A stretch of DNA of 64,000 nt, from the NCBI GenBank assembly GCA_945862075.1, contig CAMAWV010000002.1:6872-70871 (forward strand), in the 5' to 3' direction. This stretch comes from Rickettsia typhi. Its GTDB lineage: Bacteria; Pseudomonadota; Alphaproteobacteria; Rickettsiales; UBA1997. The notes under the pieces were generated by a model, which searched no databases, was not told where the DNA came from, and worked only from the letters and a program-made list of their open reading frames with translations. Position 1 is the stretch's first letter. Each line of letters begins with the position of its first letter. A program made the translations under genes and the position numbers. Positions 894 through 47,684 of the stretch are shown here, one piece after another.

Positions 894-2522
894 GTGCTAA
901 ATATATTTCAAATTCGGCAAGCCTTATTTTATAAAATACTGCTACTTTTTATACTACTTCTTGGTTTTTCTTGTTCTAAAAACAAGCTAGATCTTTTTGA
1001 TACAAAATCTGGTTTATCAATTTCTGATATTGAAAAATCAATGATAAAAGAAAAAAAAGACAACACAACCAAAGATCAAATTCAAAAACAAATACAATCT
1101 TCAATTCCAAAGCTAAATAAAACTATTATCACTCCTCCTCCCCCAATTATTGGTGGCGATATTATAATGTCTGTCTATATTAATTCTTCTAATCCTATAG
1201 TTGATGCTTTAGTTGATATTGGCAGAGCCGCTAATATTGATATTGATATCGATTCGGCAATCAATAATGCAGCCGGTGTTATTATTAATGCCAATAATCG
1301 TCCACTCAAAGAAATTATCGATCGCATTTGTGTTCAAGCTAATTTACGATATTCTTACAAAAATAAAGTTTTGTTTTTTGAGCCAGATAAATCTTTCTTA
1401 AAAAATTATCATTCCGATTTTTTACCAGATTCTCCCTTATGGGATGAGGTTAAAACCAACCTCGATAACATCTTAACCGCAGAAGCTCCAAAGAGCAACT
1501 TTACTACTCCTTCCGAATCTGAATCTTCCCTTTCTTCCTCTACTTCTTCTCAGGCTAGTGGCTCCATTGTTGCTAATAAAAATTCTGGTTTCTTCACTGT
1601 TTATGCCAATACTCGCCAACATTTAGCTATCGAAAAATATCTCAACGAGGTTAACAGACAAGCTTCAGCACAGGTTTTAATTGAAGCAAAAATAGTAGAA
1701 GTTTCTTTAAATGATCAATTTTCTGCTGGTATAGACTGGGGTCATAAATCTTGGGGCTCTATAAGTGGTGTAAGTGGCGGAATAGAAAATGCTAATGTAG
1801 CTTCTGCTTTTTCTCAAATAAACCCCAAAACAAGCACTGGTCTTTCTTATATACCAGGAAAAACTGTTAAAATATTTGGCTTAGGTCCCGATATTAATTT
1901 AGCAGTAAAAGCTCTTTCAACATTTGGAATTACTAAAGCGGTTTCTAGTCCTCGAATTAGTGCTATAAATAACCAAAAATCAACCCTCACTTTTGCCAAT
2001 AAATTAGTATATTTTAAAATCGAGCAAACCGCAGGTATTCCTGGTACAAATAGCACTCCAAGCACTGCTGGAGCTAAAAACTCTACAAAGCAAGAAGAAT
2101 CGGTAGGTGTCATACTTAATCTCACCCCTTCAATAAATCTTAAAAGCAACGAAGTTACTATTAGCATTGAACCAAAATTCACTACTAGCAACCAAAAAGT
2201 AGAAGATCCAGCAAATAAAGATAATTTTATTCCAGTTATTGTAACTCGCGAATTAAAAACTATCGCCAAAATACAAAGTGGCAATGTTTTGGTTCTTGGT
2301 GGCTTAATGGAAGATGCCTCTACAAATTCTCAAACTGGTGTACCATTTGTTAGTAAAATTCCAATTTTGGGGTGGTTTTTTAAATTTGTTAGCCGAACTT
2401 CCAGTATTAAAGAAACAGTTATTTTTATTAAAGCAACTATTGTTAATTCTAGCGGACAAGTTAATTCTGTTGATCGCGATTTACAAGAAAAATACGATAT
2501 TAACCGTAGAGAATATTTTTAG
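894..2522 (+). CDS. Secretin-family outer-membrane channel, lipoprotein type (GspD/PilQ/MshL-like)
   Basis: GTG start. Lipobox LLLGFSC (Cys27). The N-terminal segment (IVDALVDIGRAANIDIDID...RPLKEIIDRICVQANLRY) resembles a secretin N-domain. The C-terminal core VLVLGGLMEDASTNSQTGVPFVSKIPILGWFFKF...ETVIFIKATIV is the classic secretin signature. Confidence 0.75.
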   Translation: MLNIFQIRQALFYKILLLFILLLGFSCSKNKLDLFDTKSGLSISDIEKSMIKEKKDNTTKDQIQKQIQSSIPKLNKTIITPPPPIIGGDIIMSVYINSSNPIVDALVDIGRAANIDIDIDSAINNAAGVIINANNRPLKEIIDRICVQANLRYSYKNKVLFFEPDKSFLKNYHSDFLPDSPLWDEVKTNLDNILTAEAPKSNFTTPSESESSLSSSTSSQASGSIVANKNSGFFTVYANTRQHLAIEKYLNEVNRQASAQVLIEAKIVEVSLNDQFSAGIDWGHKSWGSISGVSGGIENANVASAFSQINPKTSTGLSYIPGKTVKIFGLGPDINLAVKALSTFGITKAVSSPRISAINNQKSTLTFANKLVYFKIEQTAGIPGTNSTPSTAGAKNSTKQEESVGVILNLTPSINLKSNEVTISIEPKFTTSNQKVEDPANKDNFIPVIVTRELKTIAKIQSGNVLVLGGLMEDASTNSQTGVPFVSKIPILGWFFKFVSRTSSIKETVIFIKATIVNSSGQVNSVDRDLQEKYDINRREYF

Positions 2523-2525
2523 TTT

Positions 2526-3290
2526 ATGTTACCAATTTTGAAATATATTTTAAGAAATGGATTACGAGATAAACTTTATCTAGGTTTATTTATCACAGTT
2601 GCTATCTGTTTAGCAATCGCTATATTTTTAGGCTCTACCATGTTAGTTGAGCAAACCCAAACTAGTGTTGCTTATTTTGCTGGTTCTTGTCGAACTATTT
2701 TATCTTGCGGTTTAATTTTATTTGTTTGCATCACTATAAATAGAGCTTTCGAACACAAAGAAATAGAATTTATTTTATCAAAAGCCATTTCTCGAGAACA
2801 ATTTATTTTAGGTTATCTGCTTGGTTTTTTTGTAGCTGGTATTATTATTCTACTACCACTAACTCTTATAGCAATGGTTATTTTTGGTATTTATAACATG
2901 GGTTTAGTTTGTTGGTTTCTTACAGTTTTAGCCGAAAATTTAATTGTAATTTGTTTTGCCTTACTTAGCTCGCTTATTTTAAAAAATGCTTTTTCTGCTA
3001 TTTTAGCTTCTTTAGGGTTTTATGCCATTTCTCGATTAATGGGTATGTTTGTTTTAGCAATAGAATTACCAGAAAAAATTACCATAAATTCTTATAATGC
3101 CTTAGCAATATCTTTAAAATTTTTATCGGTTTTGTTTCCGAGACTCGATTTATTTTCTCAAAGTTCATGGCTTGCTTATGCTAGCTCTATAAATTCTACC
3201 GAGTTATTGATTATTTTTTTTCAATCAATTATCTACCTGCCTCTGCTTATTTTTATGTCATTTCACGATTTTAAGAAAAAACAATTTTAG
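2526..3290 (+). CDS. Polytopic inner-membrane protein, possibly an ABC-2/NosY-like permease
   Basis: Starts 3 nt after the secretin stop. About six hydrophobic helices. The N-terminus ILRNGLRDKLYLGLF resembles ABC-2-type permeases. Family assignment is by eye only. Confidence 0.4.
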   Translation: MLPILKYILRNGLRDKLYLGLFITVAICLAIAIFLGSTMLVEQTQTSVAYFAGSCRTILSCGLILFVCITINRAFEHKEIEFILSKAISREQFILGYLLGFFVAGIIILLPLTLIAMVIFGIYNMGLVCWFLTVLAENLIVICFALLSSLILKNAFSAILASLGFYAISRLMGMFVLAIELPEKITINSYNALAISLKFLSVLFPRLDLFSQSSWLAYASSINSTELLIIFFQSIIYLPLLIFMSFHDFKKKQF

Positions 3291-3292
3291 CC

Positions 3293-4063
3293 ATGAAATG
3301 TAAAACTTTTTTTTATATTTATTCTCATAAAATATTTTTTTGGCTTTTTATTTTTTTCTTTAGTTTGCAGGTTTGGTTTTGGAAAAAAACCGAGTCTTAT
3401 CACCAAGCACAACAACCTATTCCAGAAGCACCTAGTAAATATGTAGTTTCGGCAAGTTCTTTTGGCGATAAAGAATTTTTATTTCGAGTTTTAGCAAGTC
3501 GCATTCAAAATGCTGGCGATATTTTTGCTGGTTTTATGGCTCTTAAACATTACTCTTATAAAAATCTTTATGAATGGCTAAAAACCCTCGATAATTTAAA
3601 TAATAAATCATTATTAATGCCATCTTTGGCTAGTTATTACTATTCACAAACTCAAAATAAACTAGATACAATTTACATTATAAATTATCTCGATGAATTT
3701 GCCAGTAAAGATATCGATAAATATTGGTGGTGGCTATTTCAAGCCACTTTTATTGCCAAACGCGATTTAAAAGATTATAATTTAAGCCTTAAAATTGCCA
3801 ATAAATTAGCTCAAAACCAAGCAAAACAAGCCCCTCTCTGGACCAAACAAATGCCAGCTTTCATTAGTGCCGAAATGGGCGATAATTGTTTAGCACTAAA
3901 AACTATCAGTAATATTTTGCAAGATTATCAACAAAAATCAGCTAAAAATATTCAAGATAATAATCCAGAAATCATCAAAGAAATTAACTTCATGAAGTTT
4001 TTCATTGAAAAACAAATTTACTTATTAAAGCAACAAAATTTTAATGCAAAAGAATGCAAATAA
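3293..4063 (+). CDS. Hypothetical N-terminally anchored helical protein
   Basis: Starts 2 nt after the preceding gene and overlaps the nadC start by 10 nt. One N-terminal TM segment (IFFWLFIFFFSLQVWFW), followed by helical-looking sequence (YYYSQTQNKLD, KYWWWLFQATFIAK). I recognise no family. Confidence 0.4.
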   Translation: MKCKTFFYIYSHKIFFWLFIFFFSLQVWFWKKTESYHQAQQPIPEAPSKYVVSASSFGDKEFLFRVLASRIQNAGDIFAGFMALKHYSYKNLYEWLKTLDNLNNKSLLMPSLASYYYSQTQNKLDTIYIINYLDEFASKDIDKYWWWLFQATFIAKRDLKDYNLSLKIANKLAQNQAKQAPLWTKQMPAFISAEMGDNCLALKTISNILQDYQQKSAKNIQDNNPEIIKEINFMKFFIEKQIYLLKQQNFNAKECK

Positions 4064-6983: not shown

Positions 6984-8015
6984 TTATTTTTTATGAATAA
7001 TTTTTAACAATAACTCAACATTAGCAATTGGAGTTTGAGGTAAGATACCATGCCCTAAATTAAAAATAAATGGTTTATCAGTAAAATTTAGTAAAATTTC
7101 TTCTGTTTGCTTTATAATTTGTTGTTGAGTGCCAAATGCTAATAAAAAATTATCAAGATTACCTTGTAGCACTACTTTTTTTGTGGCAAATAAATAATTA
7201 GCATAATCAAGGCTAATTGATTGATCTATAGCTAAAACACTGCAATTTACTTGTTGTAAAAAATTTTTATAATTAACTCCAATATTTTTTGGAAAATAAA
7301 TAATTGGCACTTGTGGGTAATTTTTTATAAAATAATCAACTATTTTTTTAGCAGGATTTATTATAAAATCTTGCACTTGCTGGCAAGGTAAAATACCTGC
7401 CCAAGAATCAAAAATTTTAATAATATCGGCACCACTTTTAATTTTTTGTTCTAAAAATAAAATAATTGCTTCACTTAAAAAATTTAATAATTCTAAAAAT
7501 TCATCTTTATTTGCAGTGGCAATTTGTTTAACTTTATCAAAATTTTTTGCAGAACCACCTTGCAACATATAACAAGCCAAGGTAAAAGGAGCACCAGCAA
7601 AACCAATAAGAGAAGTTTGTTTGTTTAATTTACTTTTTGTTAAAGAAACCGCTTCAAAAACTGGCTTAAGTTTTTGTAAAAAATTATTATTTAATTTTAA
7701 TTTAGTTAAATCAGATAAATTAAAGTTAGCTAAAATTGGTCCATGATTTTTTATAAAATCAACTTTAATACCTAAAGCATCTGGAATTACTAAAATATCA
7801 GAAAAAATAATTGCCGAATCAAAACCAAATCTTTCAATTGGTTGTAGAGTTACTTTACTTGCTAAAACAGGATTATAACATAAATCTAAAAAATTTTCAA
7901 GTTTATTTCTAACTTCTAAATATTCTGGTAAATACCGACCAGCTTGGCGCATAATCCAAATAGGAGGATTAGAATAAACTTGATGATTATTTATAACATT
8001 AATTATTTTATTCAT
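6984..8015 (-). CDS. hemE: Uroporphyrinogen decarboxylase
   Basis: N-terminal PIWIMRQAGRYLPEY signature, then FGFDSAIIFSDILVIPDALG and FNLGHGI. Confidence 0.95.
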   Translation of the reverse strand: MNKIINVINNHQVYSNPPIWIMRQAGRYLPEYLEVRNKLENFLDLCYNPVLASKVTLQPIERFGFDSAIIFSDILVIPDALGIKVDFIKNHGPILANFNLSDLTKLKLNNNFLQKLKPVFEAVSLTKSKLNKQTSLIGFAGAPFTLACYMLQGGSAKNFDKVKQIATANKDEFLELLNFLSEAIILFLEQKIKSGADIIKIFDSWAGILPCQQVQDFIINPAKKIVDYFIKNYPQVPIIYFPKNIGVNYKNFLQQVNCSVLAIDQSISLDYANYLFATKKVVLQGNLDNFLLAFGTQQQIIKQTEEILLNFTDKPFIFNLGHGILPQTPIANVELLLKIIHKK

Positions 8016-8311
8016 TTAATTTTTATTAATATTAGTGCTGTTAAAATGTGAATAAAAAGTTATTAACAAATTATTAACATTTTTGTGCGAAAATTTTTAT
8101 CACCATTGTAAGTAGTAAAATTAAAACTTGCAAACAATAATTTATATGTTTAAAATAGCAGTTATTAACATTATTTTTTTAATCAAAAATTAGTTATTAA
8201 CATTTTTATTTTGTTAATAACTTGTTAATGCTTGCTAATAACTTGATAATATCAAAAAAAAATGTTAATAAGTGGTAATTTATTAACAAAAACTAACAAA
8301 TTATTCACAAA
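8016..8311. other. Candidate chromosomal replication origin (DnaA-box cluster)
   Basis: Nine exact TTATT[A/C]ACA 9-mers in both orientations, starting at 8047, 8060, 8071, 8162, 8194, 8212, 8263, 8280 and 8301. Two of them (8047 reverse, 8301) equal the TTATNCACA consensus. TTAA-N7-TTAA motifs lie at 8063-8077 and 8214-8228. The region sits beside hemE, where alphaproteobacterial origins are known to lie. Confidence 0.55.
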
Positions 8312-8560
8312 ATGAAAGAAAGAATTGTTAACAACTTAACAAAAAATTTTCAACCTAGTTTTTTGCAAGTTATTGATAACTCTTCTGCTCATAGTGGGCA
8401 TTTTGTTTCTACTAATAATTTAGGCACTCATTTTAAAGTTATAATTACTAGTGATTTTTTTACTCACTGCACAAAAATTCAGGCCCATCGACTTATTAAT
8501 AAAAGTTTAAAGCAAGAATTTTTAGATGGTTTACATGCTTTGGAAATTAAAATTGTTTAA
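8312..8560 (+). CDS. BolA-family protein
   Basis: 82 aa with ...VIDNSSAHSGH...FKVIITSDFF...KIQAHRLINKSL...LHALEIK, the BolA fold signature. Confidence 0.8.
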   Translation: MKERIVNNLTKNFQPSFLQVIDNSSAHSGHFVSTNNLGTHFKVIITSDFFTHCTKIQAHRLINKSLKQEFLDGLHALEIKIV

Positions 8561-8752
8561 TTTAAGGATTTTTTTATATAATCTTTCCTTGCAACAATAG
8601 TTTTAGTTAATTATTTAAAAATGCTAATTGCTTTAATTTTTTATTCACAATACTTTTACAAGAAAAAGTTGTAAAATATTTTGCATTTTGAGTTTTTTAT
8701 AAGTAATATTTAGATAGTTTATCTTAATTATTATAAATTAATAAATTTTGCT

Positions 8753-9274
8753 ATGAAATACAGTTATTCAGCTAGGGTTTTTCATTGGTTAATGGCTTTA
8801 GTTATTATTGTAGCTTTTGCTTTAGCTTTTTACATGACTTCTCTTAATAAAGAAAATGAAAATCGTTTATTTTTTTATTCTTTACATAAATCTTTTGGGG
8901 TTCTGGCTTTAATCTTGATTTTTGCTAGAATAATAAATCGCTTTTTATATAAATCGCCTCAATTACCAGTAGAAACTGCTAAATATATTGTTAAATTAGC
9001 TAAAATAACTCATTTTATGCTATATTTATTAATGTTTCTTACTCCGTTATCTGGTTATTTAATGTCTAACTATTATGGTTATCCTGTAAAACTTTTTGGC
9101 ATGGAGATACCTATTTTAGTTGAAACAAATTTTGATTTGGCTAAAAACTTCTCTGAACTACATGAAATTTTTGCTTTTAGTTTATTAGGTTTGATCGTTG
9201 TTCATTTGTTAGCAGTTATAAAACATCATTTTATTGGTGCTAACAAATTTCCTATTATTAAACGTATGTTATAA
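8753..9274 (+). CDS. Cytochrome b561 family protein
   Basis: Four TM helices with conserved His positions (RVFHWLMAL, LHKSFG, HFMLY, VVHLLAVIKHH), typical of the CybB family. Confidence 0.8.
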   Translation: MKYSYSARVFHWLMALVIIVAFALAFYMTSLNKENENRLFFYSLHKSFGVLALILIFARIINRFLYKSPQLPVETAKYIVKLAKITHFMLYLLMFLTPLSGYLMSNYYGYPVKLFGMEIPILVETNFDLAKNFSELHEIFAFSLLGLIVVHLLAVIKHHFIGANKFPIIKRML

Positions 9275-9277
9275 ACT

Positions 9278-10021
9278 ATGTTAAAACCTAGAATTATTCC
9301 ATGTCTTGATGTTAAAAACGGCAGAGTTGTAAAAGGTATTAACTTCGAAAATTTAGCTGATGCTGGTAATCCTGTTGTTCAAGCTCAATACTATTATCAA
9401 GAAAAAGCCGATGAGCTTTGTTTTCTCGATATTTCTGCTACTCAAGAAAATAGGCAAAATATGTTTGATATGGTTAAAAAAGTTGCTTCAACTTGTTTTA
9501 TTCCGTTTACTGTTGGCGGTGGTATCAAAGAAATAGCTGATTTCTTAACTTTAATGCGATGTGGAGCCGATAAAGTTTCAATTAATTCTTCGGCAATTAG
9601 TAATCCTGCTTTAATTACCGAGGCTGCTAATAAATTTGGTTCACAGTGTGTGGTGGTGGCTTTAGATGTTAAAAAAACCAATAATGGTTATGAGGTTTTT
9701 AGTCATGGTGGCACAAAACCAACTGGTTTAAATGCTATAAATTGGGCAATTAAAGTTCAGCAATTAGGAGCAGGTGAAATTTTGCTTACTTCAATGGATA
9801 AAGACGGCACAAAAACTGGCTATGATCTTAATTTAATAAAAGAAATTACCAGTAAAGTTAGTATTCCTGTAATTGCTTCGGGTGGAGTTGGTAGTTTAAA
9901 TGATTTAGCCGATGGTTTAAAAGCTGGTGCTTCTGCTGTTTTAGCTGCTTCTATTTTTCATTTTCGGCAATTTTCTATTACTGAAGCAAAAAATTTTTTA
10001 AAACAAGAGCAGTTGATTTAA
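9278..10021 (+). CDS. hisF: Imidazole glycerol phosphate synthase cyclase subunit
   Basis: [56 protein letters not shown] and ASGGVG are present. Confidence 0.95.
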
Positions 10022-10028
10022 AAATTAG

Positions 10029-10057
10029 TTGTAATTAAAATATTTTTTGTTTAAAAT
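10029..10057 (+). promoter_or_regulatory. Possible sigma70-type promoter upstream of nuoA
   Basis: TTGTAA (10029-10034), a 17-nt spacer, then TAAAAT (10052-10057), 30 nt upstream of the nuoA ATG. AT-rich context makes chance matches likely. Confidence 0.25.
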
Positions 10058-10087
10058 TTGAAAAAAATTTCTTTTTACAAATAAATT

Positions 10088-10495
10088 ATGAATCTTTTTA
10101 ACACTCAACAACTACAACCAAAACTTTTTACATCGCAAGCAGTTTCAATTGAATATTTACCTATACTTATTTTTTTTGCAGTTGCTTTAGGGTTATCTTT
10201 ATTAATTATCGTTTTGCCTTTTTTTATTAATAAACTTCGCCCAAATAAACATAAAAATTCTCCTTACGAATGTGGTTTTGAAGGATCAGGTGAGGTGCGC
10301 AATAAATTTAATGTTAAGTTTTATTTAGTGGCAATTTTATTTTTAATTTTCGATCTAGAAATAGCCTTTTTATTTCCGTGGGCGGTTTCTCTAAAAACAA
10401 TTGGTTATACTGGTTTTTGGTCGATGATGTTTTTTTTAAATGTGCTTACTATTGGTTTTGTTTATGAATTAAAAAGAGGCGCTCTCGAATGGTAA
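10088..10495 (+). CDS. nuoA: NADH-quinone oxidoreductase subunit A
   Basis: Three-TM protein with YECGFE and [15 protein letters not shown] motifs. Confidence 0.9.
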
Positions 10496-11019
10496 ACTCC
10501 TACATAACCACTACATCTTCTTTGCAAGAAACTGATTTTGAAAAACTGCCTAAAGATATTGCTAATCAAGGCTTTATAACTGCTAAACTCGATGATTTAA
10601 TAAACTGGGCAAGGTCTGGTTCTCTTTGGCCTATGACTTTCGGCTTAGCTTGTTGTGCAGTTGAAATGATGCAAACCGCAGCTAGTCGATATGATATTGA
10701 CAGATTTGGTATGGTTTTTCGTCCATCACCAAGGCAATCCGATGTCATGATTGTTGCTGGCACCCTTACCAATAAAATGGCTCCTGCTTTACGCAAAGTC
10801 TACGATCAAATGTCGGAGCCTAAATATGTGGTTTCTATGGGTAGTTGTGCCAATGGCGGAGGTTATTATCATTATTCTTATTCGGTTGTTAGAGGTTGTG
10901 ATCGTATTGTGCCTGTTGATGTTTATGTGCCGGGTTGTCCGCCAACCGCTGAAGCTTTGCTTTATGGTTTATTGGTTTTGCAAAATAAAATTATCAGAAC
11001 CAAAAATTTTAAACGATAA
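10489..11019 (+). CDS. nuoB: NADH-quinone oxidoreductase subunit B
   Basis: [27 protein letters not shown] and VPGCPP (Fe-S cluster N2 ligands). Overlaps nuoA by 7 nt. Confidence 0.95.
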
Positions 11020-11022
11020 ATT

Positions 11023-11622
11023 ATGTTTTTAGATTTAGCCAAACAAGAGTTTTATATTAAAGAAAATTTCAAACAAACTTCTTTACAAACTTCAATTACT
11101 AACGATAATTTAATTATTATTTGCCCAGTTGAAAAAATCATTAATTTTCTTACTTTTTTAAAACAAGATACCGCTCTTTCTTTTAAAACTTTGGTTGATC
11201 TTTTCGCTTCCGATATGCTTTATTTAAAAGAAATTCGTTTTGAAGTGATTTATAATTTACTAAGTTATAAATTAAACAGCCGAATCACTGTAAAAGTTTG
11301 TCTTGAAAGCACACAAATAAAAGTTCCAACAGCAATTAATATTTTTAGTTCTGCTGGTTGGTATGAAAGAGAAGTTTTTGATATGTATGGAATTTATTTT
11401 GAAAATCACCCAGATTTACGTCGAATTCTCACCGATTATAATTTTGTTGGGCATCCTTTACAAAAAGATTTTCCTCTCACTGGTTACCAAGAAGTTAGAT
11501 ATGATGAAGAGTTACAACAAGTGGTTTATGAGCCAGTAAAACTTACCCAAGAATTTCGTAATTTTGATTTCGATATGCCTTGGTATGGTCCAAAAAATAA
11601 TAATAAAAATTCTGATCAATGA
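11023..11622 (+). CDS. nuoC: NADH-quinone oxidoreductase subunit C
   Basis: AGWYEREVFDMYGIYFENHPDLRRILTDY and GHPLQKDFPLTGY are present. Confidence 0.9.
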   Translation: MFLDLAKQEFYIKENFKQTSLQTSITNDNLIIICPVEKIINFLTFLKQDTALSFKTLVDLFASDMLYLKEIRFEVIYNLLSYKLNSRITVKVCLESTQIKVPTAINIFSSAGWYEREVFDMYGIYFENHPDLRRILTDYNFVGHPLQKDFPLTGYQEVRYDEELQQVVYEPVKLTQEFRNFDFDMPWYGPKNNNKNSDQ

Positions 11623-11999
11623 AGAAAATTTGGCAATCTTTTTATAAAGCATCATTAGGGCAAGAAACTACTAAAGTAGTAGAGGTTTTTTGGTTTTTAT
11701 CTTTGTGTTTTGTATTTTATATTACTCATAAAATAAATTATTATTTTCAAACTAGTTATTTTTTCACAACTTTATTGATTGTTATTTTAATTATTTGGCA
11801 TATTTATGTGGTTTATAAATGCAAAACTATTGAATCTTCCAATTTAACAAAAGAAGAACAACAACTTTCTAAAATTAAAAAACCAAGTTCTGTGTTAAAA
11901 AAAATATTATTGCGAGAGCCAATTTCTAAGCCAAGCTGGAGGCAAATAGTGGTAGTAATTGATATTTTATTACTTTTATCGGCACTTTCTTGGTTATAA
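11619..11999 (+). CDS. Small hypothetical membrane protein, translationally coupled to nuoC
   Basis: ATGA start/stop overlap with nuoC. It has two to three hydrophobic segments and occupies the position where nuoD normally follows. No recognisable family. Confidence 0.5.
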   Translation: MKKIWQSFYKASLGQETTKVVEVFWFLSLCFVFYITHKINYYFQTSYFFTTLLIVILIIWHIYVVYKCKTIESSNLTKEEQQLSKIKKPSSVLKKILLREPISKPSWRQIVVVIDILLLLSALSWL

Positions 12000-12016
12000 A
12001 CCTAATCTAAAAATCT

Positions 12017-13354
12017 ATGCCACAATTTAAATTGCCCTATCAAAACAAAAATACTGATTTTTCTATTTTATATCAAAATGCCAGAATTATTGATCCGGCA
12101 ACTGGTTATGATTGTCTTGGTAATTTACTTACTATTGGCAATAAAATTATCGATTTTGGTCCTAATTTACAAGCTTCGGCAAATTTAGTTATTGATTGCA
12201 AGCAGCATATTTTAGCTCCTGGTCTTATTGATTTGCAGGTACATTTTCGCGATCCAGGACAACACCATAAAGAAACTCTACAAACTGGCTCTGCCTCTGC
12301 GGTGGCAGGTGGTATTACCACTGTGGTGTGTCAACCTAATACCGTTCCTTGTCTTGATTCGGTTTTTACCCTAGAATATCTAAAATTAAAAGCCAAAGAA
12401 TCTGCTTATTGTAATGTTTTGGCTTATGCTTGTATTACTAAAAATATGCAAGGTCAAGAACTTACCGAAATGAATCTATTAAAACAAGCTGGTGCAGTTG
12501 GTTTTACCGACGATGGCTTGCCTGTAATGAATGCTAATATCATGAGAAGAGCTTTTGAAATGAGTCGAGATCTCGATGTTGTGGTTGCTCAACATGCCGA
12601 AGATTTAAACTTATCTAATAAAGGTTGTATTAACGAAGGTATAGTTGCTCACCAGCTCGGTATAAGAGGAATTCCAAATATTTCAGAATCGGTAATTGTA
12701 GAAAGAGATTTGGCGATTTTAGAGGCAATTAAAGGTAAATATCATTTACTGCATGTTTCAACAAAAGAAGCTTTACAAGCCATTGTTAGAGCAAAAGATA
12801 AAGGTTTATCGGTAACTGTTGAGGTGGCTCCGCATCATTTTACCTTAACTGATGAGCAGGTTTTAATTTCTGGCACTAATGCTAAAATGAACCCACCACT
12901 TCGCTCACAGTCAGATAAAGAGGCTTTGCTTGATGCTTTAAAATTAGGGTTAATTGATGCAATTGCCACCGATCATGCTCCTCACGATTTAGCATCTAAA
13001 GAAAAATCTTTGCAAGAAGCATCTTTTGGTATTGTTGGAGTAGAAACTTTATTATGTTTGTCGCTTGCTTTGTATCATCAAAAACTATTAACTTTACCGC
13101 AAGTATTGGCGAAACTCACTTGTAATCCAGCTAAAATCATTAATTTAAAAAAAGGTATTATTGCCAAAAATGCTATTGCCGATTTGGTGTTGATAGATCT
13201 CAATTTCGCTTGGCAAATTGAGATTGATAAATTTTATAGTAAATCAAAAAATTCGCCCTTTGATGGTTTTCAAACTAAAGGCAAAGCACTACTTACGGTT
13301 GTTGATGGAATTATTGTATTTGACGATTTTACTAAAAATAGCAATAATTGTTAA
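12017..13354 (+). CDS. pyrC: Dihydroorotase
   Basis: PGLIDLQVHFRDPG (metal-binding HxH region), HAED, LHVSTKE and ATDHAPH are present. Confidence 0.85.
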   Translation: MPQFKLPYQNKNTDFSILYQNARIIDPATGYDCLGNLLTIGNKIIDFGPNLQASANLVIDCKQHILAPGLIDLQVHFRDPGQHHKETLQTGSASAVAGGITTVVCQPNTVPCLDSVFTLEYLKLKAKESAYCNVLAYACITKNMQGQELTEMNLLKQAGAVGFTDDGLPVMNANIMRRAFEMSRDLDVVVAQHAEDLNLSNKGCINEGIVAHQLGIRGIPNISESVIVERDLAILEAIKGKYHLLHVSTKEALQAIVRAKDKGLSVTVEVAPHHFTLTDEQVLISGTNAKMNPPLRSQSDKEALLDALKLGLIDAIATDHAPHDLASKEKSLQEASFGIVGVETLLCLSLALYHQKLLTLPQVLAKLTCNPAKIINLKKGIIAKNAIADLVLIDLNFAWQIEIDKFYSKSKNSPFDGFQTKGKALLTVVDGIIVFDDFTKNSNNC

Positions 13355-13357
13355 TTT

Positions 13358-14278
13358 ATGATTATTATTGAAAATCTGCATAAAAATTATCAAAAATCTG
13401 CTAAATCATTGTCAAAAATAGCTCTTGATGGCATTAATTTAAACATAAAAAAAGGTTCATTTTTTGGTTTATTAGGGCCAAACGGAGCTGGTAAATCAAC
13501 CATCATTAATATTTTAGCGGGTTTAGTAAATAAAACCAGTGGCAAAGTTATTATAGCTGGTTTTGATATCGATACTCACTCTTGTCAAAGTAAATATAAA
13601 ATTGGCATTGTTCCACAAGAATTAATCATCGATCCGTTTTTTAATGTTTATGAAACTCTCGAAATTTATGCTGGTTATTTTGGAGTGCCAAAATCTCAAC
13701 GCAAAACCGCTCAAATCATTGAGGCTTTAGGGTTGGCTGATAAAGCAAAATCAAAACCTAGAGCTTTATCTGGTGGCATGAGAAGAAGGCTTTTGGTGGC
13801 AAAAGCTTTGGTTCATAACCCTGAAATTTTAGTGCTTGATGAACCTACCGCAGGAGTTGATGTTGAGTTACGAAACCAGCTTTGGGCTTATGTGCAAAAT
13901 CTCAATAAACAAGGAACCACAATATTGCTTACCACTCATTATTTAACCGAAGCAGAACAACTTTGCAACGAAATTGCTGTTATTAATAAAGGTAAAGTTG
14001 TGGCTTGTGATAGCAAACAAAATTTGTTAAATAGTTTATCTGAAAAACAATTAATTATTCATACCAAACAAGTATTACCTGCTAATTTTTTGTTACCAAA
14101 TCTTGATTTTAAATTAGACAAAGCAAACGAAATTATTATTAATTATAATCCAAATCATATTGCAATTACCGATATTTTATGGCAAGTTACAGCACAAAAA
14201 CTCGATATTCTCGATATTTTTACCAAGCAACCAGATTTAGAACAGGTTTTTCAACATATTGTGCAAAAAAATGAATAA
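13358..14278 (+). CDS. ABC transporter ATP-binding protein (ABC-2 subfamily-like)
   Basis: Walker A GPNGAGKST, signature LSGGMRRRL and Walker B LVLDEPTAGVD. No permease gene lies adjacent. Confidence 0.85.
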   Translation: MIIIENLHKNYQKSAKSLSKIALDGINLNIKKGSFFGLLGPNGAGKSTIINILAGLVNKTSGKVIIAGFDIDTHSCQSKYKIGIVPQELIIDPFFNVYETLEIYAGYFGVPKSQRKTAQIIEALGLADKAKSKPRALSGGMRRRLLVAKALVHNPEILVLDEPTAGVDVELRNQLWAYVQNLNKQGTTILLTTHYLTEAEQLCNEIAVINKGKVVACDSKQNLLNSLSEKQLIIHTKQVLPANFLLPNLDFKLDKANEIIINYNPNHIAITDILWQVTAQKLDILDIFTKQPDLEQVFQHIVQKNE

Positions 14279-15179
14279 TCTACTTTCTATTTTGCCGTTA
14301 CAACCGCAACAAATATTGCAAATACTTGATGTAGCTAAATTTTATTATAATAACCCTAAGCAATATTTTGATATTTTAAAAGGCAAATTGTTAGTGAATT
14401 TTTTTTTTGAAAACTCTACCAGAACCAGAATGTCTTTTGAATTATCGGCAAAAAAAATGGGAGCCGAAGTTATTAATCTTGATATTTCGCTTTCGTCTTT
14501 AAAAAAAGGTGAAACAATTATTGATACTGCTAAAACAATTTCGGCGATGGAGCCAGATTTTGTGGCAATTCGGCATAATTCTAGTGGAATTTTACAGATT
14601 CTGCAAAAACATATTTCAGCTAGCCTAATTAATGCAGGTGATGGCACTAACGAGCATCCTTCGCAAGCTTTACTTGATGCTTTTACCATTTTAGAGCATA
14701 AAAAAACCCTGAAAGGTTTAAAAGTGGCAATTTGTGGCGATGTTTTGCATTCAAGAGTTGCTCGATCTAATATTTTTTTACTAAGAAAATTTGGCTGTGA
14801 AATCAATATTAACACTCCGCCAACTCTTTTACCTTTTGGTTATGAACAATGGCTCAAAAATTATAATGTCAAAATATGTACAAAATTATCAACAGCAATT
14901 ACTGATGCCGATGTTATCATGATGCTTCGCCTACAGCAAGAAAGAATGGAAAGTTGCTATATAGCTTCTTTTGATGAATATTTTCATCTTTATGGTCTTG
15001 ATAATCATAAAATTAAATTAGCACCTAAAGCAATTATTTTACATCCAGGACCAATCAATCGTCAAGTTGAAATAGATGCTAATCTTGCTTACGATACTCA
15101 AAAATCTTGTATTTTAAACCAAGTAAAAGCAGGAGTGGCGGTTCGCATGGCAATTCTACAATGTTTATCACATATTTAA
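14271..15179 (+). CDS. pyrB: Aspartate carbamoyltransferase catalytic subunit
   Basis: FFENSTRTRMSFELSAKKMG, HPSQALLD and HPGPINR are present. The track starts at TTG 14259; I prefer ATG 14271 (MNNLLS...), which overlaps the ABC gene stop by 8 nt. Confidence 0.9.
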   Translation: MNNLLSILPLQPQQILQILDVAKFYYNNPKQYFDILKGKLLVNFFFENSTRTRMSFELSAKKMGAEVINLDISLSSLKKGETIIDTAKTISAMEPDFVAIRHNSSGILQILQKHISASLINAGDGTNEHPSQALLDAFTILEHKKTLKGLKVAICGDVLHSRVARSNIFLLRKFGCEININTPPTLLPFGYEQWLKNYNVKICTKLSTAITDADVIMMLRLQQERMESCYIASFDEYFHLYGLDNHKIKLAPKAIILHPGPINRQVEIDANLAYDTQKSCILNQVKAGVAVRMAILQCLSHI

Positions 15180-16734: not shown

Positions 16735-17598
16735 TTATAAAACTGTTGCAATCTGAACCGCAACGGTTTTAATGGTGCGATTATCAACGGCAATTACCTT
16801 AAAATTAATGCCAAATTTTTCGATTTCTTCATTGATTTCTGGGAGTCTTTTGAATGCTGAAATAACCAAGCCAGCCACAGTATCGATGTTCTCTTCTTCT
16901 ATAGAAAAACCTACTATTTCCGATAGTTTTGCTAATGCCACTCTCCCTCCGAGATGAAAAATATTGTTTTCGAGTTCTTTGATTTGAAAAAAAGCACTTT
17001 CTAGCGGTAAATCGTGTTCATCTTCTATTTGTCCAACAATTTCTTCCACAATATTTTCGATAGTAACCAAGCCATCAACACCGCCAAATTCATCAAGCAC
17101 AATACCAATATGCACTCTTGACATGCGCATTAGCATTAATACATCAATAAGCTTCATAGAACATGGAAAAAATAAGATTTTTCTGATAATTTTGCTAATT
17201 TGAAAGATTTCTTGATTTTGTTTTGATAAAAATTTTGCCAAATCTTTGCTATGAATGAAACCTGTAATATTGTCGAAAGTTTCGGCATAAATCGGAATTC
17301 TGGTGTGTTGATCTTCGTTGATGATGGTTTTAATTTCTTCGAGGCTAGCAGTTTGTTTGATAGCTATAATATCGGAACGGTTGGTCATGATGGTGTTGAT
17401 TTTTTTATCGGCAAAGCCCACTATATTGCGAAATAATTTTTTCTCTTCACTTGAAATTAATCCTTCGGAAGCAAAAGTTTCGGTGATATGATTAATCACA
17501 GTGGCAAAAGATTTTTTAGTTTTTTTGCCAAAAATATTTTTTAAAAGTTGGTAAATTTTACTAAAAGTTGGGAGTATCTTTTTAGAAAAAATAGTCAT
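16735..17598 (-). CDS. tlyC: CBS-pair plus CorC/HlyC domain protein (hemolysin C / CorC family)
   Basis: CBS-domain region (IMTNRSDIIAI...RIPIY) and C-terminal transporter-associated domain. It overlaps ybeY by 4 nt, the conserved ybeY-corC arrangement. Confidence 0.8.
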   Translation of the reverse strand: MTIFSKKILPTFSKIYQLLKNIFGKKTKKSFATVINHITETFASEGLISSEEKKLFRNIVGFADKKINTIMTNRSDIIAIKQTASLEEIKTIINEDQHTRIPIYAETFDNITGFIHSKDLAKFLSKQNQEIFQISKIIRKILFFPCSMKLIDVLMLMRMSRVHIGIVLDEFGGVDGLVTIENIVEEIVGQIEDEHDLPLESAFFQIKELENNIFHLGGRVALAKLSEIVGFSIEEENIDTVAGLVISAFKRLPEINEEIEKFGINFKVIAVDNRTIKTVAVQIATVL

Positions 17599-19163: not shown

Positions 19164-19871
19164 TTAAAAAGAAAAAAGTAATTGACAGGAAATTTGATTG
19201 CTTACTAAATATTTGCTGTTTTGTAAGCAACTTTCTTGCCCAGAATTATCGTTTAAGGTTTGCCCAGTTTTGGCTAATATTTTACCAGAATTTGGTAAAC
19301 CATCATCAAATTTTTTATCGAGATCATGGGCTTTTGCAGCAGAAAGAACTGGCTTGGTATAAAGCTGGGTGGCATCAGCTTCGCTAAAACCAAGATGTAA
19401 AAAATTAGTTTTCTGATGATTAATTAATTTACCAAAAGCAATAATGCCAGCTTGATTGTTTTCTGATATACCTAAGGCTTTTGGCATGCTAAAACCAATT
19501 CGAGCTGATTCGTTGCTAAAACCATCGTATGTTTCAGAAAACATTTTAAAATTACCAAGATGAAGCCAAAAATTGGCTATTTCACCATCAAATAAAGTAT
19601 TTCCAATTATTGAGTCGGTAATAATTCCGTCGGCATTGCCATTGGTAGGATAGTTGCTTAATTTTAACTCAAAAGCATTAGAAATATCGCCTGGTAAAGC
19701 CTGATATTTTGTGTAGAAAGAATCTATTTGTTGTTGAATTTTAGTAATTTGGATGTGTAATTGTTTTTCGCTAGAAGATTTGGAAATATTTTTAATAACA
19801 AAGCCTAAAGCAATACCAACCACAAGCAAAAAAATAAAGATCATTTTAACAATAATGAAATCTATTTTCAT
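19164..19871 (-). CDS. Hypothetical N-terminally anchored exported protein (235 aa) with a C-terminal Cys-Cys loop
   Basis: The track ORF (to 20015) reads through tRNA-Lys, so I trimmed it to ATG 19871 (MKIDFIIVKMIFIFLLVVGIALGF...). It starts 11 nt after the tRNA 3' end and ends 3 nt before hemH. Two Cys residues 14 positions apart lie at the C-terminus (CLQNSKYLVSNQISC). Confidence 0.55.
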   Translation of the reverse strand: MKIDFIIVKMIFIFLLVVGIALGFVIKNISKSSSEKQLHIQITKIQQQIDSFYTKYQALPGDISNAFELKLSNYPTNGNADGIITDSIIGNTLFDGEIANFWLHLGNFKMFSETYDGFSNESARIGFSMPKALGISENNQAGIIAFGKLINHQKTNFLHLGFSEADATQLYTKPVLSAAKAHDLDKKFDDGLPNSGKILAKTGQTLNDNSGQESCLQNSKYLVSNQISCQLLFSF

Positions 19872-19882
19872 AAAAAAAATGG

Positions 19883-19958
19883 TGGTGAGCACGGTTGGAA
19901 TCGAACCAACGACAACCTCATTAAAAGTGAGGTGCTCTACCGACTGAGCTACGTGCTC
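19883..19958 (-). tRNA. tRNA-Lys (anticodon UUU)
   Basis: Reverse complement GAGCACGTAGCTCAGTCGGTAGAGCACCTCACTTTTAATGAGGTTGTCGTTGGTTCGATTCCAACCGTGCTCACCA folds as a perfect 76-nt cloverleaf. Anticodon loop is CTTTTAA and CCA is encoded. Confidence 0.92.
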
Positions 19959-20133
19959 TAAAAAATCTAGTATATTAAAGAATAACCTCAATAATATAGG
20001 TAATTTTAGATGCAAAATATTTTAAAACAACAAAATAAAAATAGCAAGAATTTTTTTATAATTTTATTTAAAATAAATTTGGGATGTAATAGTCTCGTAA
20101 TATTAAAACTATTTTAAATTTGTAAAAAACTGT

Positions 20134-20162
20134 TTGACAATTAAAAATTAATGTAATACTAT
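20134..20162 (+). promoter_or_regulatory. Possible sigma70-type promoter for the 20230 ORF
   Basis: TTGACA (20134-20139), a 17-nt spacer, then TACTAT (20157-20162). Confidence 0.25.
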
Positions 20163-20229
20163 TCATCTATTAATCTATAAATTATTTTACAGATTATATT
20201 AATGTGATTAACTTAAAATTTTTTAATTT

Positions 20230-29477: not shown

Positions 29478-32400
29478 ATGCTAATTTTAACCAAATATAA
29501 ACAAGCAATTATTAAGGTTCTTTCTAGTTTAACTAATTGTTTGTTTTTTATATGGTTACAAAAAATATTTAGCAGTAAAAGTAAAAAAATACTCCTATAT
29601 TTTATAGCTATTTTTGGCATTATTTCATTACTTTGGCAGTTTCATTTTAAAGCGGTTTTGTCTGATGCTAATCCTCCTTATAAAAACACTGCCCACCCTA
29701 GAAAAGATGCTTTCCCTACTCCTATTCTGCCTAGCTTTGATGCAACCACTGTTTTAGAATCTCCCTTGACCTCTGAAACAATAAATGTTGACAGGCTAGG
29801 TTATGCATTAACCAAGCTTTATTATCAAAATGGTGTCGATTACTTTCGTTGTGCAACAAACGATCTAACAAAAAACGATCTGCAATATTATTGTGATTCT
29901 TCTATAAACAAAGATGATTCTTTAAAAATCAAAGATAGTCAATGTGGCATTACTCCTATTTTTTGCACAGAAGAACAGGTTTTTAATTTTCAAGCTATAA
30001 AACGAGAGAGTTTTTATAAAAGATCACCAGGTGAAAAAATTATACGTTTAGTTAAAGAATATAAATCAGGTGATACTATTTTAACCGACTATCGTATTAG
30101 TTATTTACCGCCTTATGATCAATTTAATTTAGTGCCCACTGATAGTACTGGAGTGCTAAATGTATCTAGTGTTGGAAATCCTGCTATCAAAATTGACTCA
30201 GGATCAACATCTAGCCCATATACTAATTACAATGGTAAAGCAAGCAATTTACCTGCTTGCAAAGCTGGAGCTAGTTTGCAAGATATAGGCAATACTTGTA
30301 TGTTAAAAATTAAGATAGATGATATCAATAGAATAAAAATTAATGCAAAAGACTTTGATTTTGCAAAAACTGATGATTACTGTCATACCAAAACTAAAGA
30401 AGCTCCAGTTTTGGGTGAAAATTGTAGACTTCCTTCTTGTTTATCTATTTCAAAAGAATATTATCGCAGACCAGGTATCAATTGCTTGGCAGATTGCAAT
30501 GATGGTGCAGAGTTTAATGGTATTGATAATGCAAATTTGCGATTACCAGGTATAAATTGCTTGCCTGCTTGTGAAACTGGCTCAAAAAGTGTTTCTTATA
30601 CTAGTGATTATCAAAGTTTAGATCCATTTCTACCTAAAGATATTGGAGTTACTTGTTTTTTAAAGCATCAAGGTTATGTAATGCCAGTTTGCAACAGTAC
30701 ACCATTGGTAAATTCTCCCAATTCTAATTCTCAAAATATATCCGATGTAAAAAATACTATTATCGCTGCTAGTCCGAATGTTCCTAGAAAAGATTGTCTG
30801 AATGCCGCTGATTTACCTTTATGTGCTTTTTTCTCTTATGCTGATAGAGCAGGAGTGGCAAGTAAATTTGGTTGTTTGGGCATGGTAATGCAAAACACTG
30901 CTGGTGGTGCACCGTCATTTATTGATAATCAATATGTTTTAGGAGTTGACACAATCAATTTATCACTTCTACCTCAATACGATGAAGATCCTGGAGTTAC
31001 AGCAACACTTAAAAACATACCAATTATTGATTATACGCCAAGAAATTGTAATGATGCAACATTTACAATTGGATGTGGTAAGCCTTATACTTATTCTAAA
31101 TTAGCCCAAGCAGCTAGTAGTATTGCCTCTGGACTTTATCCTGCTAATGTTGATATGATACCGGTGCAAGATGCTAGTTATAATGATGCCTTAAATCACG
31201 ATAGCGTTAATGAAAATCATGCTAATTCTTTAAGAACGAATCCTTTTTATAACACTACAAGAACTAGTACAGCTTTTTCTGTGGGTAAAGATTCTTCTGG
31301 AGTTACAGTTAAATATAAAATTACAGAAACTCTCGATCCTTATTATAATGCAACTAATAAACCAAGTTGTTCGTTACTTACCAAGCAAGAACTTAAATTT
31401 ATTGGTACTAGAAATTGTGATTTAAACCAAATTTGGAGCGATTCTACAGGTGGAAAAAATAGTATACCCGATTTATCGTCTAGTTCTAGTAAAAATTTTT
31501 GTGAAGGTCAATATTTTTGTAAAGTTGATACTCGTTGTTCGATGTTTAGTGATGAGCAATTGCAAGAAGCGAAAGCATTTTTTCATTGTTTACCTGCTCA
31601 ATATAGTAAATATGAAGAGAGTAAAGTTGATATTAAATGTAATGTTTTAAATGATTTTGAAATTTTGGCTCTTACTAAAACTACTAAAACCACATCTGCA
31701 GTAGAACTTGATGAATTAAAAAATTATATTACTAATGCTTGTTTTAGAGGCAACTTGGCTTTTTTGATTCACAAGCGAATAGATCATAACATTGCAAATT
31801 CGACTATTCTTGCGAATACTGATAATGTTCCAGATTATAGCAAGATCAATAGTTCGATCTTTGATCCTAGTGTTGTTGTTGGCACCCTTCCTTCTCTTGC
31901 TTCGCAATGTAAGTATGTTGATAATGCTAGAGTAAATTATATGTTTCCTACTGGTAATCCTAGTGCGTGTGGTGCTAGCGTTACAGCGATAAGCTCTACA
32001 TCAGGCAGTTGTTTATCTGGTAAATTTGCTTGTTATCATTCTAGTCAATTTTCTTGTAATCTAGAGCATTATAAGACAGCTTGTTATTTATTGGCAAACT
32101 ATAAATTTCAAAATATTGATAGCTTTCTTAATGGCCAAACAACATCAATAAGCGATGATAAAATAGCACCTATATCGATTGGTTGCTCTGGAAGTGCTCC
32201 TGATAATAAAAAATGTGTAGTTAAATATGGATTAGATAATTTAGGTATGCTTAATTGTTTTAGCGATTATGCTAATTTTACTAATACAAGTACTGATGGC
32301 AAATTTGATGCTGATCGATTTGCCACAATTAGTAAATGCGATGCAAATCCTCTTTTATTAACTCTTTTTGTGCCAAATGCCAAAAAAACAATTGTTTATG

Positions 32401-35400
32401 CCGATACTACACCTTTAAGCCAAAGGCTTATAAACGATAATAAAGTTGATTGTCCTGATTGTTATTGTGTTTCAATTGATGGTTCTGCACTATCAAAAAC
32501 TAAATATCTAATTAGCGGAGGTTCCGATATTGATTTTTCTTTATCTCCTGATGCACGTTCTGATTCGATAGTTCCTATCTGCGGAGCTCCTAATTCTAAT
32601 TGTTATATATGTTATAAACCAAATTTTTATGCTGGTTTATTTAAAAAATCAACTCCCTCCTCTCCTTATTATCCTGTTATCGAACATGAAATAACCCGGT
32701 TAATTGGCGTAATGCAAGAAGGTGCTTCACAAGAAACGACAAGTAATATGGGTTATTATCAATACGAAGATCCTTTTTATAGCTGGTTCTTTTTTCCAAA
32801 GCCAAATACATCAGGCTCAGATGCGATACAAACGGTAAGAGATTGTGGAGATAGTAAAAAATGTTATAAGGCTTTTACTGTTGATTTTCCGAATAGTCGT
32901 GGTAGTACAGATGTTAATAGTCCTGGCTTTCTAAATTATTCAACTAATAAAGCTGAATATCTAGATTTTTTTCAATATCCGCCAATTTATTATTATGGTA
33001 ATGGTAGTTATGGTGATGATGGTGAAAAAGAAAAATATAATCTAGTCTCAAGTGAAGAGGGATTAAATTATGGTGTGCCCAATAGAGTTGGTTTGCACTC
33101 TATTAACAAAATTTCTTCTCCTAGTGCCACAGCTTTAAGAGGTGCTGATACGATGGGGGTCAATCCTTATGGCAATTATACATATACCTCTTCATTTGAT
33201 AGAGAATGGTTATGCGGAATGAATCGTGATCCGGGCGGATTGCCAGATGAAGATACTTTTGCTTATTTTGCTCCTGTTTTAGTGCAAGGGGGCAGATTCG
33301 GTTTACAAACAAACAATGTGCAGGGCGATCGGAGAAGATTTGCTTTTTCTGATACAAAATGGAATAGTGTCACAAAAAAACTTGAGTATTATGTTAATAT
33401 TTGTTTGCGATACGAATCGGCAATGGCGGTTGGGGCTTGTGGTAGAAGAGAGTGTCGAATAGATAATAAACCAGGTATGATGCATTGCGGTGAAGATCAA
33501 TGTCGTAAATTTATCGTTGAAGCCCCAGATGATGGGGTTTATAGCAAGTGTCATTTGTTAGCGAAGACGGCTATGGCAGATATTGATGGCAAACCACAAT
33601 CGCATTGGTTTGTTAATAACTTGCAAGAATCATTATCTTCTGAAAGCGATCCTCTTCGGATCGATAAATTTCTTGATGACGATGGATTGCCTACTGACTA
33701 TGAAAAATGCGCAAAGCTTTATAGTGCCCCCACTTTAGAACTTGGTAAAAGACTTGGTAAAGGTGCGGGTGCGGCATTCCTTACTGCTGCTACTTTTGGT
33801 CTTGGAGTTGGAGTTAGTGCTTTTGTAGCGACAGTTTGGGATTATACTAATCATCGAGTGAGAGCTTTTTATGACAAAGGTGGTTATGTATGTGCCGAGC
33901 TTGATTTTTATGGTATGGATTTGAATGCATATAATGCAAATAAAAATGACTTGAAGGATTATTCGTTTTTTGAATTGCCAGATGGAGAAGGAAAAATTTG
34001 TTATGGAGGTAGAGTTGTTAATAATAACAAAGAATGTGATTTTGTAAATGGTGGTTTTAATACTTTTGCCGATCTTAATTCAGGTATTGGTGGCTTGCCC
34101 GGTGCTCCAGATCCTACGGTTTGGAGAGCGGTGAGAAAGGTTAAATTTATCAGTAATATTTCTAATGATCCAAATATTGAATTTTTAGGTTATAGTGTTC
34201 CAGAGGTTGCCGATCAGTCTACTCAATATGCTTACAGAACAGATACAAATGTGCATAATCTTTTTCCTGCCAAAATGAAGGCACAAGATGGTCTAATTAC
34301 TATGGTATACAATCATGCTACTAGAATGAGAACAATAGAAAGAATCGATTCTTCGTTATCTGAAACTGCTATTTTTAGATCACATCAAAATGACCGAGAT
34401 ACAGCAGCAGAACAATCGCCTGATTTAACATATGGTTTGTTGCAAATGTCAAGAGGTAAAAAAAATCCTTATTACGGATTTAACGGCTATAGTGATGATA
34501 ACGATCCCACTTGGAAGTGGCTTAGCACTTCGTTTCCAGATGATTATTCTTTATGTAGTATCTTTGGATTTATTCCAGTACCTATCAATGGTTTATGTGC
34601 TAGTATTTCTATACCATATGTGTCAACAGTTGCACAAGATATTACAAAACAAAGAGAGGACGGAACTGGAGATGGATCTCGTGTAGCAACCTCGACATTG
34701 TATAAAACAGCATTTCAGCCAAATAACTTTTTAAAAGAAAAAGTATGGTTCAAATCAGATTGTGTGCCAGTGCAGAAAAGAGTAGGTTTTCCATTGCTTT
34801 CTGCTGTTGCTACTCCAGATAATGCACCTAATTTATTTGCGCCAGAACCTATGGTTTTCGCTTTAAAAACAACATCCGTTACTAATTCATGGAAAAAAAT
34901 CACTGAAATTAACGATATGGATAAATTAAATTTTTCTGATCCAGAAATTGTTTTAAAATATGGCAACAAATATTACTATATACAAGTTCCTAAAAAACAT
35001 GCTTCTTTAACAAAGTGTAATACCACTAATAATAAAATATTTGATAACACTGGCGATGCAAGATTAAAATTTATTTTAAAAGAAATACCTAGCGTCGCTA
35101 ATGATAATGATCTTTTAGACAAATTAAATAATAATCAAGTTAATTCATCAAAGAATGAGGTATCAACAACATCAACAACAAAATTTGAAGACGATATACC
35201 GTCTTTTAAAGAGCATCATAACCCTAATTTTCAAGACAGTACAGATTCCGATTCCATACCTAATAAATGCGGGAATAGTAGTAGACCGTATGGAGTTGTT
35301 ATTGCTTCGAATCTTAAGCAAATAACTAGCGCCGTTCCTGCTGTTTCTAATAATACTATGTTATATGCTCAAATTGTGGCTAAAAAAGAACATCAAGGCA

Positions 35401-46537: not shown

Positions 46538-46540
46538 TTT

Positions 46541-47533: not shown

Positions 47534-47684
47534 TTGATTCAAAAATAATGTTAAAAGACCAACTAGTAAACTTGATATTAATTTTAAAGAACAATATTTT
47601 TTTGTCAAACATTTTATATTGCATTTTATAAGTAAATTAGCTATACTTTTTTCTAGAAAAACAACAAAAATTTTATTTAATTTA

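Follow-up and report, generated by a model that had tools for sequence, protein, structure and literature searches.

The hemE–bolA intergenic region as a probable DnaA-dependent chromosomal origin in an uncultured freshwater Rickettsiales-like alphaproteobacterium

The 296-bp gap (17% G+C) that separates the divergently transcribed genes hemE and bolA, at positions 8016–8311 of a 64-kb stretch of contig CAMAWV010000002.1 (the whole of which we refer to as the window), is very probably, as judged from its sequence, the DnaA-dependent chromosomal origin of replication (oriC) of an uncultured, low-G+C, freshwater Rickettsiales-like alphaproteobacterium. As such it belongs to the known class of hemE-adjacent alphaproteobacterial origins. 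Origins beside hemE are documented in Caulobacter and Rickettsia (hemE/COG1806) and predicted between hemE and COG1253 in Wolbachia, Ehrlichia and Anaplasma (PMC1914354; PMC6393856), and these sources bear out the adjacency on which the original prediction of a candidate oriC at this position had drawn. That prediction is further upheld by a box cluster that is unique in the window, by its conservation in relatives, and by a local switch in GC skew. The identities first assigned to the boundary genes, hemE on the minus strand and a bolA-family gene on the plus strand, agree with their matches to TIGR01464 and PF01722 (Table 1), and hemE directly abuts the gap both here and in all of the relatives. 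A freshwater metagenome-assembled genome labelled "Rickettsiales bacterium" encodes a HemE 99% identical to the one described here, which is also encoded on metagenome contigs (ENA, Logan assemblies).

A pattern search finds nine exact TTATT[A/C]ACA 9-mers in the gap, in both orientations (Table 1). Two are TTATTCACA and match the DnaA-box consensus TTATNCACA exactly, and the other seven are TTATTAACA, one base off TTATNCACA at position 6. The number, positions and orientations of the 9-mers, and their division into two exact and seven one-off copies, are those first reported, whereas of the "several" further one-mismatch variants that had been mentioned we find just two within the gap, at 8023 and 8233. 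In all, the window contains 15 copies of TTATT[A/C]ACA where 5.2 are expected, nine of them in the gap and six in the other 63.7 kb, such that the density in the gap is about 300 times that of the remaining window. Shuffling the gap 5000 times with dinucleotide composition preserved gives a mean of 0.09 copies and a maximum of two, against the nine observed. It had been pointed out that equal density in other intergenic regions would undermine the prediction, and we therefore note that each of the other intergenic regions of at least 100 bp, including four that are equally AT-rich, has at most one copy. The gap is also the top-scoring 296-bp segment of the whole sequence at every stringency tried.

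Conservation of the array was examined in 19 related loci with DNA upstream of hemE, drawn from two independent collections, six from genomes and 13 from metagenomes, with HemE identities of 62–99%. In each of the 19, the first 400 bp or so upstream of hemE contain six to nine exact boxes, with hardly any in the remainder of the locus; translation of five relatives (L007, L008, L010, L011 and L012) showed bolA as the divergent neighbour of hemE in each. Invariant columns make up 95% of the box positions and 68% of the non-box positions in the near group, which comprises three close lineages (Fisher p = 3e-7), and across six lineages the corresponding values are 72% and 27% (Fisher p = 2e-12). 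Orthologous sites switch between A and C at position 6 of the box; site 8212, for instance, is TTATTCACA in L007, and site 8301 is TTATTAACA in that same locus. This switching indicates that TTATTAACA and the canonical TTATTCACA behave as versions of a single site. The position of the 8047 box is kept in all lineages, as TTATTCACA, TTATTGACA, TAATTAACA or TTATCGACA, the tandem pair at 8060 and 8071 is kept in every relative with a spacing of 11 or 12 bp, and the pair of boxes 32 bp apart is kept in near and far relatives alike. The logo of 44 sites, (A)(G)TTATT[A>C]ACA, is asymmetric, and thus fits a site for a monomer better than a palindromic operator.

The spacing of the boxes is also regular, with neighbouring boxes of the same orientation lying 11, 21 or 32 bp apart. 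These distances approximate whole helical turns, and bound proteins would line up along one side of the helix, in keeping with a DnaA oligomer. A further TTATTCACA box is present at 8641–8649, between bolA and the cytochrome b561 gene, and probably lies outside of the core origin; it is absent at that position in L006, whose HemE is 99% identical, and in L007. A bipartite origin, with the 8641 box and the unstable DNA at 8690–8749 constituting a second half, was considered and dropped, the box being missing in these two loci. In the distant relative L010 the hemE–bolA gap (L010 4896–5290) exceeds those of L011 and L012 by about 140 bp and, to the bolA side of its boxes, has an additional insert that is richer in G+C and contains direct repeats (…GACGAGTCTGCGTAAAC…GGTGCGTAAAGACGAGTTCTG…).

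The GC skew turns from negative to positive at about 8.0–8.5 kb, at the gap. To its left the skew is −0.093 for plus-strand genes and −0.080 for minus-strand genes, and to its right +0.066 and +0.090 respectively; because genes on both strands agree on each side, the switch is not a coding-strand effect. The cumulative G−C curve has a flat trough at about 6.5–9.25 kb with a minimum at 8489, which is also the minimum of a 73-kb stretch obtained by extending the window leftward by 9 kb with the overlapping contig L013 (L013 1–9107 corresponds to window −9106 to −107). The closer relatives show the sign change as well. The gap is also where gene orientation flips, as first noted. The added 9-kb block from L013 encodes cydAB, a 568-aa gene of unknown function, ferredoxin, a GST, dsbD, ispDF and nuoF, all on the minus strand, and could possibly reflect a past inversion or transfer; its junction is confirmed by an independent Logan contig, L014.

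Several observations weigh against an origin at this position. In the L013 extension the skew is close to zero and the third-codon-position skew is slightly positive, so that the negative arm is just about 8 kb long, compared with 56 kb of positive skew on the right, and the skew minimum is thus shown locally, within 73 kb. The most distant relatives have flat skew within 3 kb on either side. The gene-orientation argument is weak, since it had rested on a miscount, the run of thirteen plus-strand genes at 8312–15179 being in fact ten, and it holds locally: co-orientation of genes with diverging forks is seen next to the gap but fades beyond the first ten genes, with 23 plus-strand and 19 minus-strand genes to the right of the gap and 69% of the coding length there on the plus strand (from the open reading frame lists). 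No dnaA gene was found within the 64-kb window, and the position of the unwinding element is not pinned by the sequence.

The inner layout of the gap can be described in more specific terms. Its box-free centre, at about 8103–8145, is the longest conserved non-box block, and includes two predicted promoters (Table 1) that are arranged back to back and share the palindromic −35 hexamer TTGCAA at 8128–8133. The TACAAT of the predicted promoter directed toward hemE is invariant in all six aligned lineages, and both hexamers of that directed toward bolA are kept in L007 and L008. Promoter-like matches in the region number 12 versus 8.0 (sd 2.9) in shuffled sequences, and are therefore not above chance. 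A transcript from the predicted hemE promoter would cross the three boxes on the hemE side. We found no credible Rfam match to a known RNA in or near the gap, and its mild single-strand folding signal (z = −2.2) has its source in the oppositely oriented boxes.

The two least stable 60-mers of the window in a nearest-neighbour scan flank the box cluster, the least stable at 8690–8749 and the second at 7975–8034. Of the two, we consider 7975–8034 to be the likeliest unwinding site. In every lineage the hemE side has the same module, consisting of two tandem boxes, a box in the opposite orientation, a degenerate box, a small G+C cluster, and AT-rich DNA extending to the hemE start; the core of the G+C cluster, which reads CAGCAC or CAGCCC on the hemE strand, shows almost no variation across the lineages. 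The order of AT-rich DNA, spacer and then TGTGAATAA has what we take to be the same polarity as the DNA-unwinding element and R1 box of E. coli oriC. A DnaA-trio pattern (a box, a spacer of no more than 16 bp, and at least three NAN trios; PMC8287927) can also be read on the hemE side of box 8047–8055, with an 11-bp spacer that contains the conserved G+C cluster. Such a pattern is nearly unavoidable in DNA of 17% G+C, and we give it no weight because it is too permissive in this context.

These features suggest how the origin might work. DnaA would bind to an array of nine to eleven 9-bp boxes, for which the consensus in this lineage would be (A)(G)TTATTAACA, with the canonical TTATTCACA as an interchangeable variant. 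The resulting DnaA oligomer would then open the adjacent AT-rich stretch, most likely that at 7975–8034, next to the outermost box at the hemE start. The hemE and bolA promoters would be situated back to back in the box-free centre, and their transcripts would run outward over the box arrays, a course resembling that at the Caulobacter origin. Working from the sequence and its conservation, we infer that DnaA binds TTATTAACA, where the unwinding element lies, that the two promoters are active, and that the origin fires.

The alternative that survives best retains the origin and adds a second level of control, in which phosphorylated CtrA bound at two TTAA-N7-TTAAC sites (8063–8078 and 8213–8228) would block DnaA; we regard this as doubtful, although several observations speak for it. 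The two TTAA-N7-TTAA motifs exist where they were first described, at 8063–8077 and 8214–8228, both of the full TTAA-N7-TTAAC matches in the gap overlap boxes, and at least one TTAA-N7-TTAA overlapping a box is present in every relative. CtrA is present in most Alphaproteobacteria (PMC6393856), and ctrA orthologs are reported in the compared Rickettsiales genomes (PMC1914354). As a feature separate from the boxes, however, the motifs are not supported. They arise because the box contains TTAAC and a second box or half-box is positioned 11 bp away, the motif at 8063–8078 being made by boxes 8060 and 8071, and that at 8214–8228 by box 8212 and a half-box at 8223. When the boxes are held in place and the other bases shuffled, 1.4 TTAA-N7-TTAA motifs are expected versus the two seen (P(≥2) = 0.33), and in the whole window the motif is under-represented, with eight copies against 16 expected. 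In most of the distant relatives the boxes of a tandem pair lie 12 bp apart, changing the spacing to N8. The window counts, the fixed-box simulation and the spacing in relatives together led us to reject the CtrA motifs as an independent signal.

In several Rickettsiales the predicted origin contains one CtrA site or none (PMC1914354), and no ctrA gene was found within the window. There are no GANTC (CcrM) sites in 7900–8800, compared with 232 in the whole window, and GATC is also absent from 7900–8800. The IHF consensus WATCAANNNNTTR has a single match in the gap, at 8236 on the minus strand, which is absent from L007 and located elsewhere in L008, so that the gap has no IHF site conserved in these two relatives. 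A more elaborate proposal is that the DnaA box has shifted to TTATTAACA such that it holds the CtrA half-site TTAAC, with two boxes one turn apart constituting a full CtrA site (TTAA-N7-TTAAC), and initiator and inhibitor competing for the very same bases, as opposed to the partly overlapping sites of Caulobacter. We think this improbable. In a milder version, the DnaA of this lineage may have co-evolved to prefer A at box position 6.

Two further alternatives dispute the origin itself; the skew switch, the synteny and the way the motif behaves make both of them unlikely. The first is that the DnaA boxes are real and the origin lies elsewhere, with the gap functioning as a datA- or DARS-like locus that titrates or reactivates DnaA, or as a pair of hemE and bolA promoters repressed by DnaA. 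Both predicted promoters are indeed embedded among the boxes, and the negative skew arm is about 8 kb in data that comprise the window plus 9 kb and not a whole genome. Against this, nine to eleven boxes are conserved over deep divergence at the canonical hemE position, the skew sign change coincides with the cluster both here and in close relatives, and the least stable DNA flanks the cluster, and we therefore judge a non-origin cluster to be very improbable. Less probable still is an array of operators through which a factor other than DnaA, reading a partly palindromic GTTA-N-TAAC, would control hemE and bolA. In its favour, G is found at position 0 in about half of the sites, giving the palindrome GTTA-T-TAAC, and the array lies within a divergent promoter region. 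Against it, the 44-site logo led us to reject a palindromic operator, as every site has the 3′ ACA and just 23 of 44 the 5′ G; TTATTCACA breaks the palindrome, restores the DnaA consensus and substitutes freely at orthologous sites; nine sites over 260 bp in both orientations are atypical of an operator; and the skew switch and the hemE position both fall at the cluster.

The hemE–bolA gap thus remains best explained as an origin, and the coordinates of its features are shown in Table 1.

Table 1. Features of the hemE–bolA intergenic region and its borders, in window coordinates.
Feature	Position	Strand	Basis
hemE (uroporphyrinogen decarboxylase), left boundary gene	6984–8015	−	TIGR01464, 353.9 bits vs cut-off 303
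Candidate DNA-unwinding element, overlapping the first hemE codons	7975–8034	.	Second least stable 60-mer
Small G+C cluster AGTGCTG, between the outermost box and the AT-rich stretch	8034–8040	.	
DnaA box TTATTCACA, exact TTATNCACA match, outermost on the hemE side; reads TGTGAATAA on the plus strand	8047–8055	−	Pattern search
DnaA-box variant TTATTAACA, first of tandem pair 11 bp apart	8060–8068	+	Pattern search
DnaA-box variant TTATTAACA, second of tandem pair	8071–8079	+	Pattern search
Predicted sigma-70-type promoter TTGCAA-17-TACAAT toward hemE	8105–8133	−	Consensus match
Predicted promoter TTGCAA-17-TAAAAT toward bolA	8128–8156	+	Consensus match
DnaA-box variant TTATTAACA, first of same-orientation 32-bp pair	8162–8170	+	Pattern search; repeat D2
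DnaA-box variant TTATTAACA, second of 32-bp pair	8194–8202	+	Pattern search
DnaA-box variant TTATTAACA	8212–8220	−	Pattern search
Degenerate box TTATTAGCA, one mismatch, 21 bp from box 8212, poorly conserved	8233–8241	−	Repeat D5
DnaA-box variant TTATTAACA, invariant in near group	8263–8271	−	Pattern search, alignment
DnaA-box variant TTATTAACA	8280–8288	+	Pattern search, alignment
DnaA box TTATTCACA, exact consensus, outermost on the bolA side, ending 2 nt before the bolA ATG	8301–8309	+	
bolA-family gene, right boundary gene, 82 codons	8312–8560	+	PF01722
Extra TTATTCACA box, bolA to cytochrome b561 gap	8641–8649	+	Pattern search

The remainder of the window encodes hisC, hisF, nadC, dihydroorotase-like and pyrB-like (aspartate/ornithine carbamoyltransferase family) genes, hemH, ybeY, a CBS/CorC gene, and dispersed nuo genes. 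The organism is not a typical reduced endosymbiont, since histidine, NAD and pyrimidines are still made. The genes nuoA, nuoB and nuoC (10088–11622) are followed by a 126-aa unknown, the dihydroorotase-like gene, an ABC ATPase and the pyrB-like gene, while nuoH and nuoI are located 35 kb away on the other strand (46052–47698) and nuoF is isolated at the window's left edge (L013 8592–9875). Scattered nuo genes are typical of Rickettsiales.

Several other loci in the window are of interest in their own right. A single plus-strand open reading frame at 29478–44480 encodes exactly 5000 aa; it matches nothing in Pfam at 1e-5, and its DNA is free of substantial tandem repeats. On the minus strand, 20968–22020 matches Mito_fiss_Elm1 (PF06258, E = 7e-55) and lies beside a penicillin-binding transpeptidase gene, and a 283-aa open reading frame at 19164–20015 overlaps a tRNA-Lys gene (19883–19958, minus strand), so that the real gene probably starts further in. 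The adjoining 214-bp gap at 20016–20229 (14% G+C) has no DnaA-type boxes. A secretin gene is followed by open reading frames of 254 and 256 aa without Pfam matches (894–4063, plus strand), which may encode parts of a pilus or secretion apparatus. Near the right edge, 61652–63196 (plus strand) encodes the type I restriction-modification methylase HsdM (N6_Mtase, E = 1e-117).

An origin at the hemE–bolA gap would locate the start of replication in a freshwater Rickettsiales-like lineage that is known from metagenomes only. It could be used for ordering and orienting contigs, for estimating growth rate from coverage (peak-to-trough ratios), and for constructing shuttle vectors should a member of the lineage ever be cultured. 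It also contributes a data point on the evolution of origins in the Alphaproteobacteria, in which hemE adjacency is retained, the other boundary is bolA, and CtrA, IHF and CcrM motifs are not seen. Current understanding is unchanged, since an origin of this kind is expected here.

Comparison with well-described origins shows both likenesses and differences. In E. coli oriC, 9-bp boxes are present in both orientations, some of them 2 bp apart (an 11-bp period), and an AT-rich unwinding region lies beyond the outermost TGTGNATAA. The gap resembles it in having a box array in both orientations, an 11-bp period, and AT-rich DNA beyond the outermost box. It differs in that the E. coli origin is located between gidA and mioC and has GATC/SeqA control and sites for IHF and Fis, none of which we see here, and no E. 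coli-style arrangement of high- and low-affinity sites can be recognised, because consensus and variant boxes are not fixed by position across the relatives. The variant TTATTAACA has precedent in the AT-rich genomes of Mycoplasma hominis, M. mobile and M. arthritidis, where the identical 9-mer is already annotated as a putative DnaA box (PMC2751442), although the mycoplasma boxes number one or two, are beside dnaA, belong to unrelated bacteria, and are likewise predicted.

The Caulobacter crescentus origin, Cori, is similarly positioned directly upstream of hemE, and includes the hemE promoter (PMC6393856; PMC1914354), which in the gap described here is predicted. Transcription from the hemE promoter is required for replication initiation in Caulobacter (PMC6393856); the embedded and divergent promoter pair predicted here differs from that model. 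Cori contains seven weak or moderate boxes (G and W), five CtrA sites shown by footprinting, one IHF site and five GANTC sites, whereas the gap has nine near-consensus boxes, mostly TTATTAACA, lacks GANTC sites and a conserved IHF site, and has no excess of CtrA motifs over chance. The other boundary of Cori is a DUF299/COG1806 gene; here it is bolA, and no DUF299 gene was found in the window.

There are parallels, too, with the origins predicted for Rickettsia, Wolbachia, Ehrlichia and Anaplasma (PMC1914354). These differ from the gap in their two to five boxes, scored against TTATNCACA, in place of nine to eleven that are mainly TTATTAACA, and in their partner gene, COG1253 or COG1806, where the second boundary gene here is neither of these, being bolA. 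A COG1253-type gene on the side away from hemE is nonetheless shared, albeit at a distance of 8.4 kb in the window, where the CBS/CorC_HlyC gene at 16735–17598 lies to the right of the gap beside ybeY and hemH. Like the hemE–bolA gap, the predicted Rickettsiales origins are AT-rich intergenic regions of 300–600 bp bounded by hemE, with DnaA boxes, few or no CtrA sites, and sites that are more conserved than the spacers between them.

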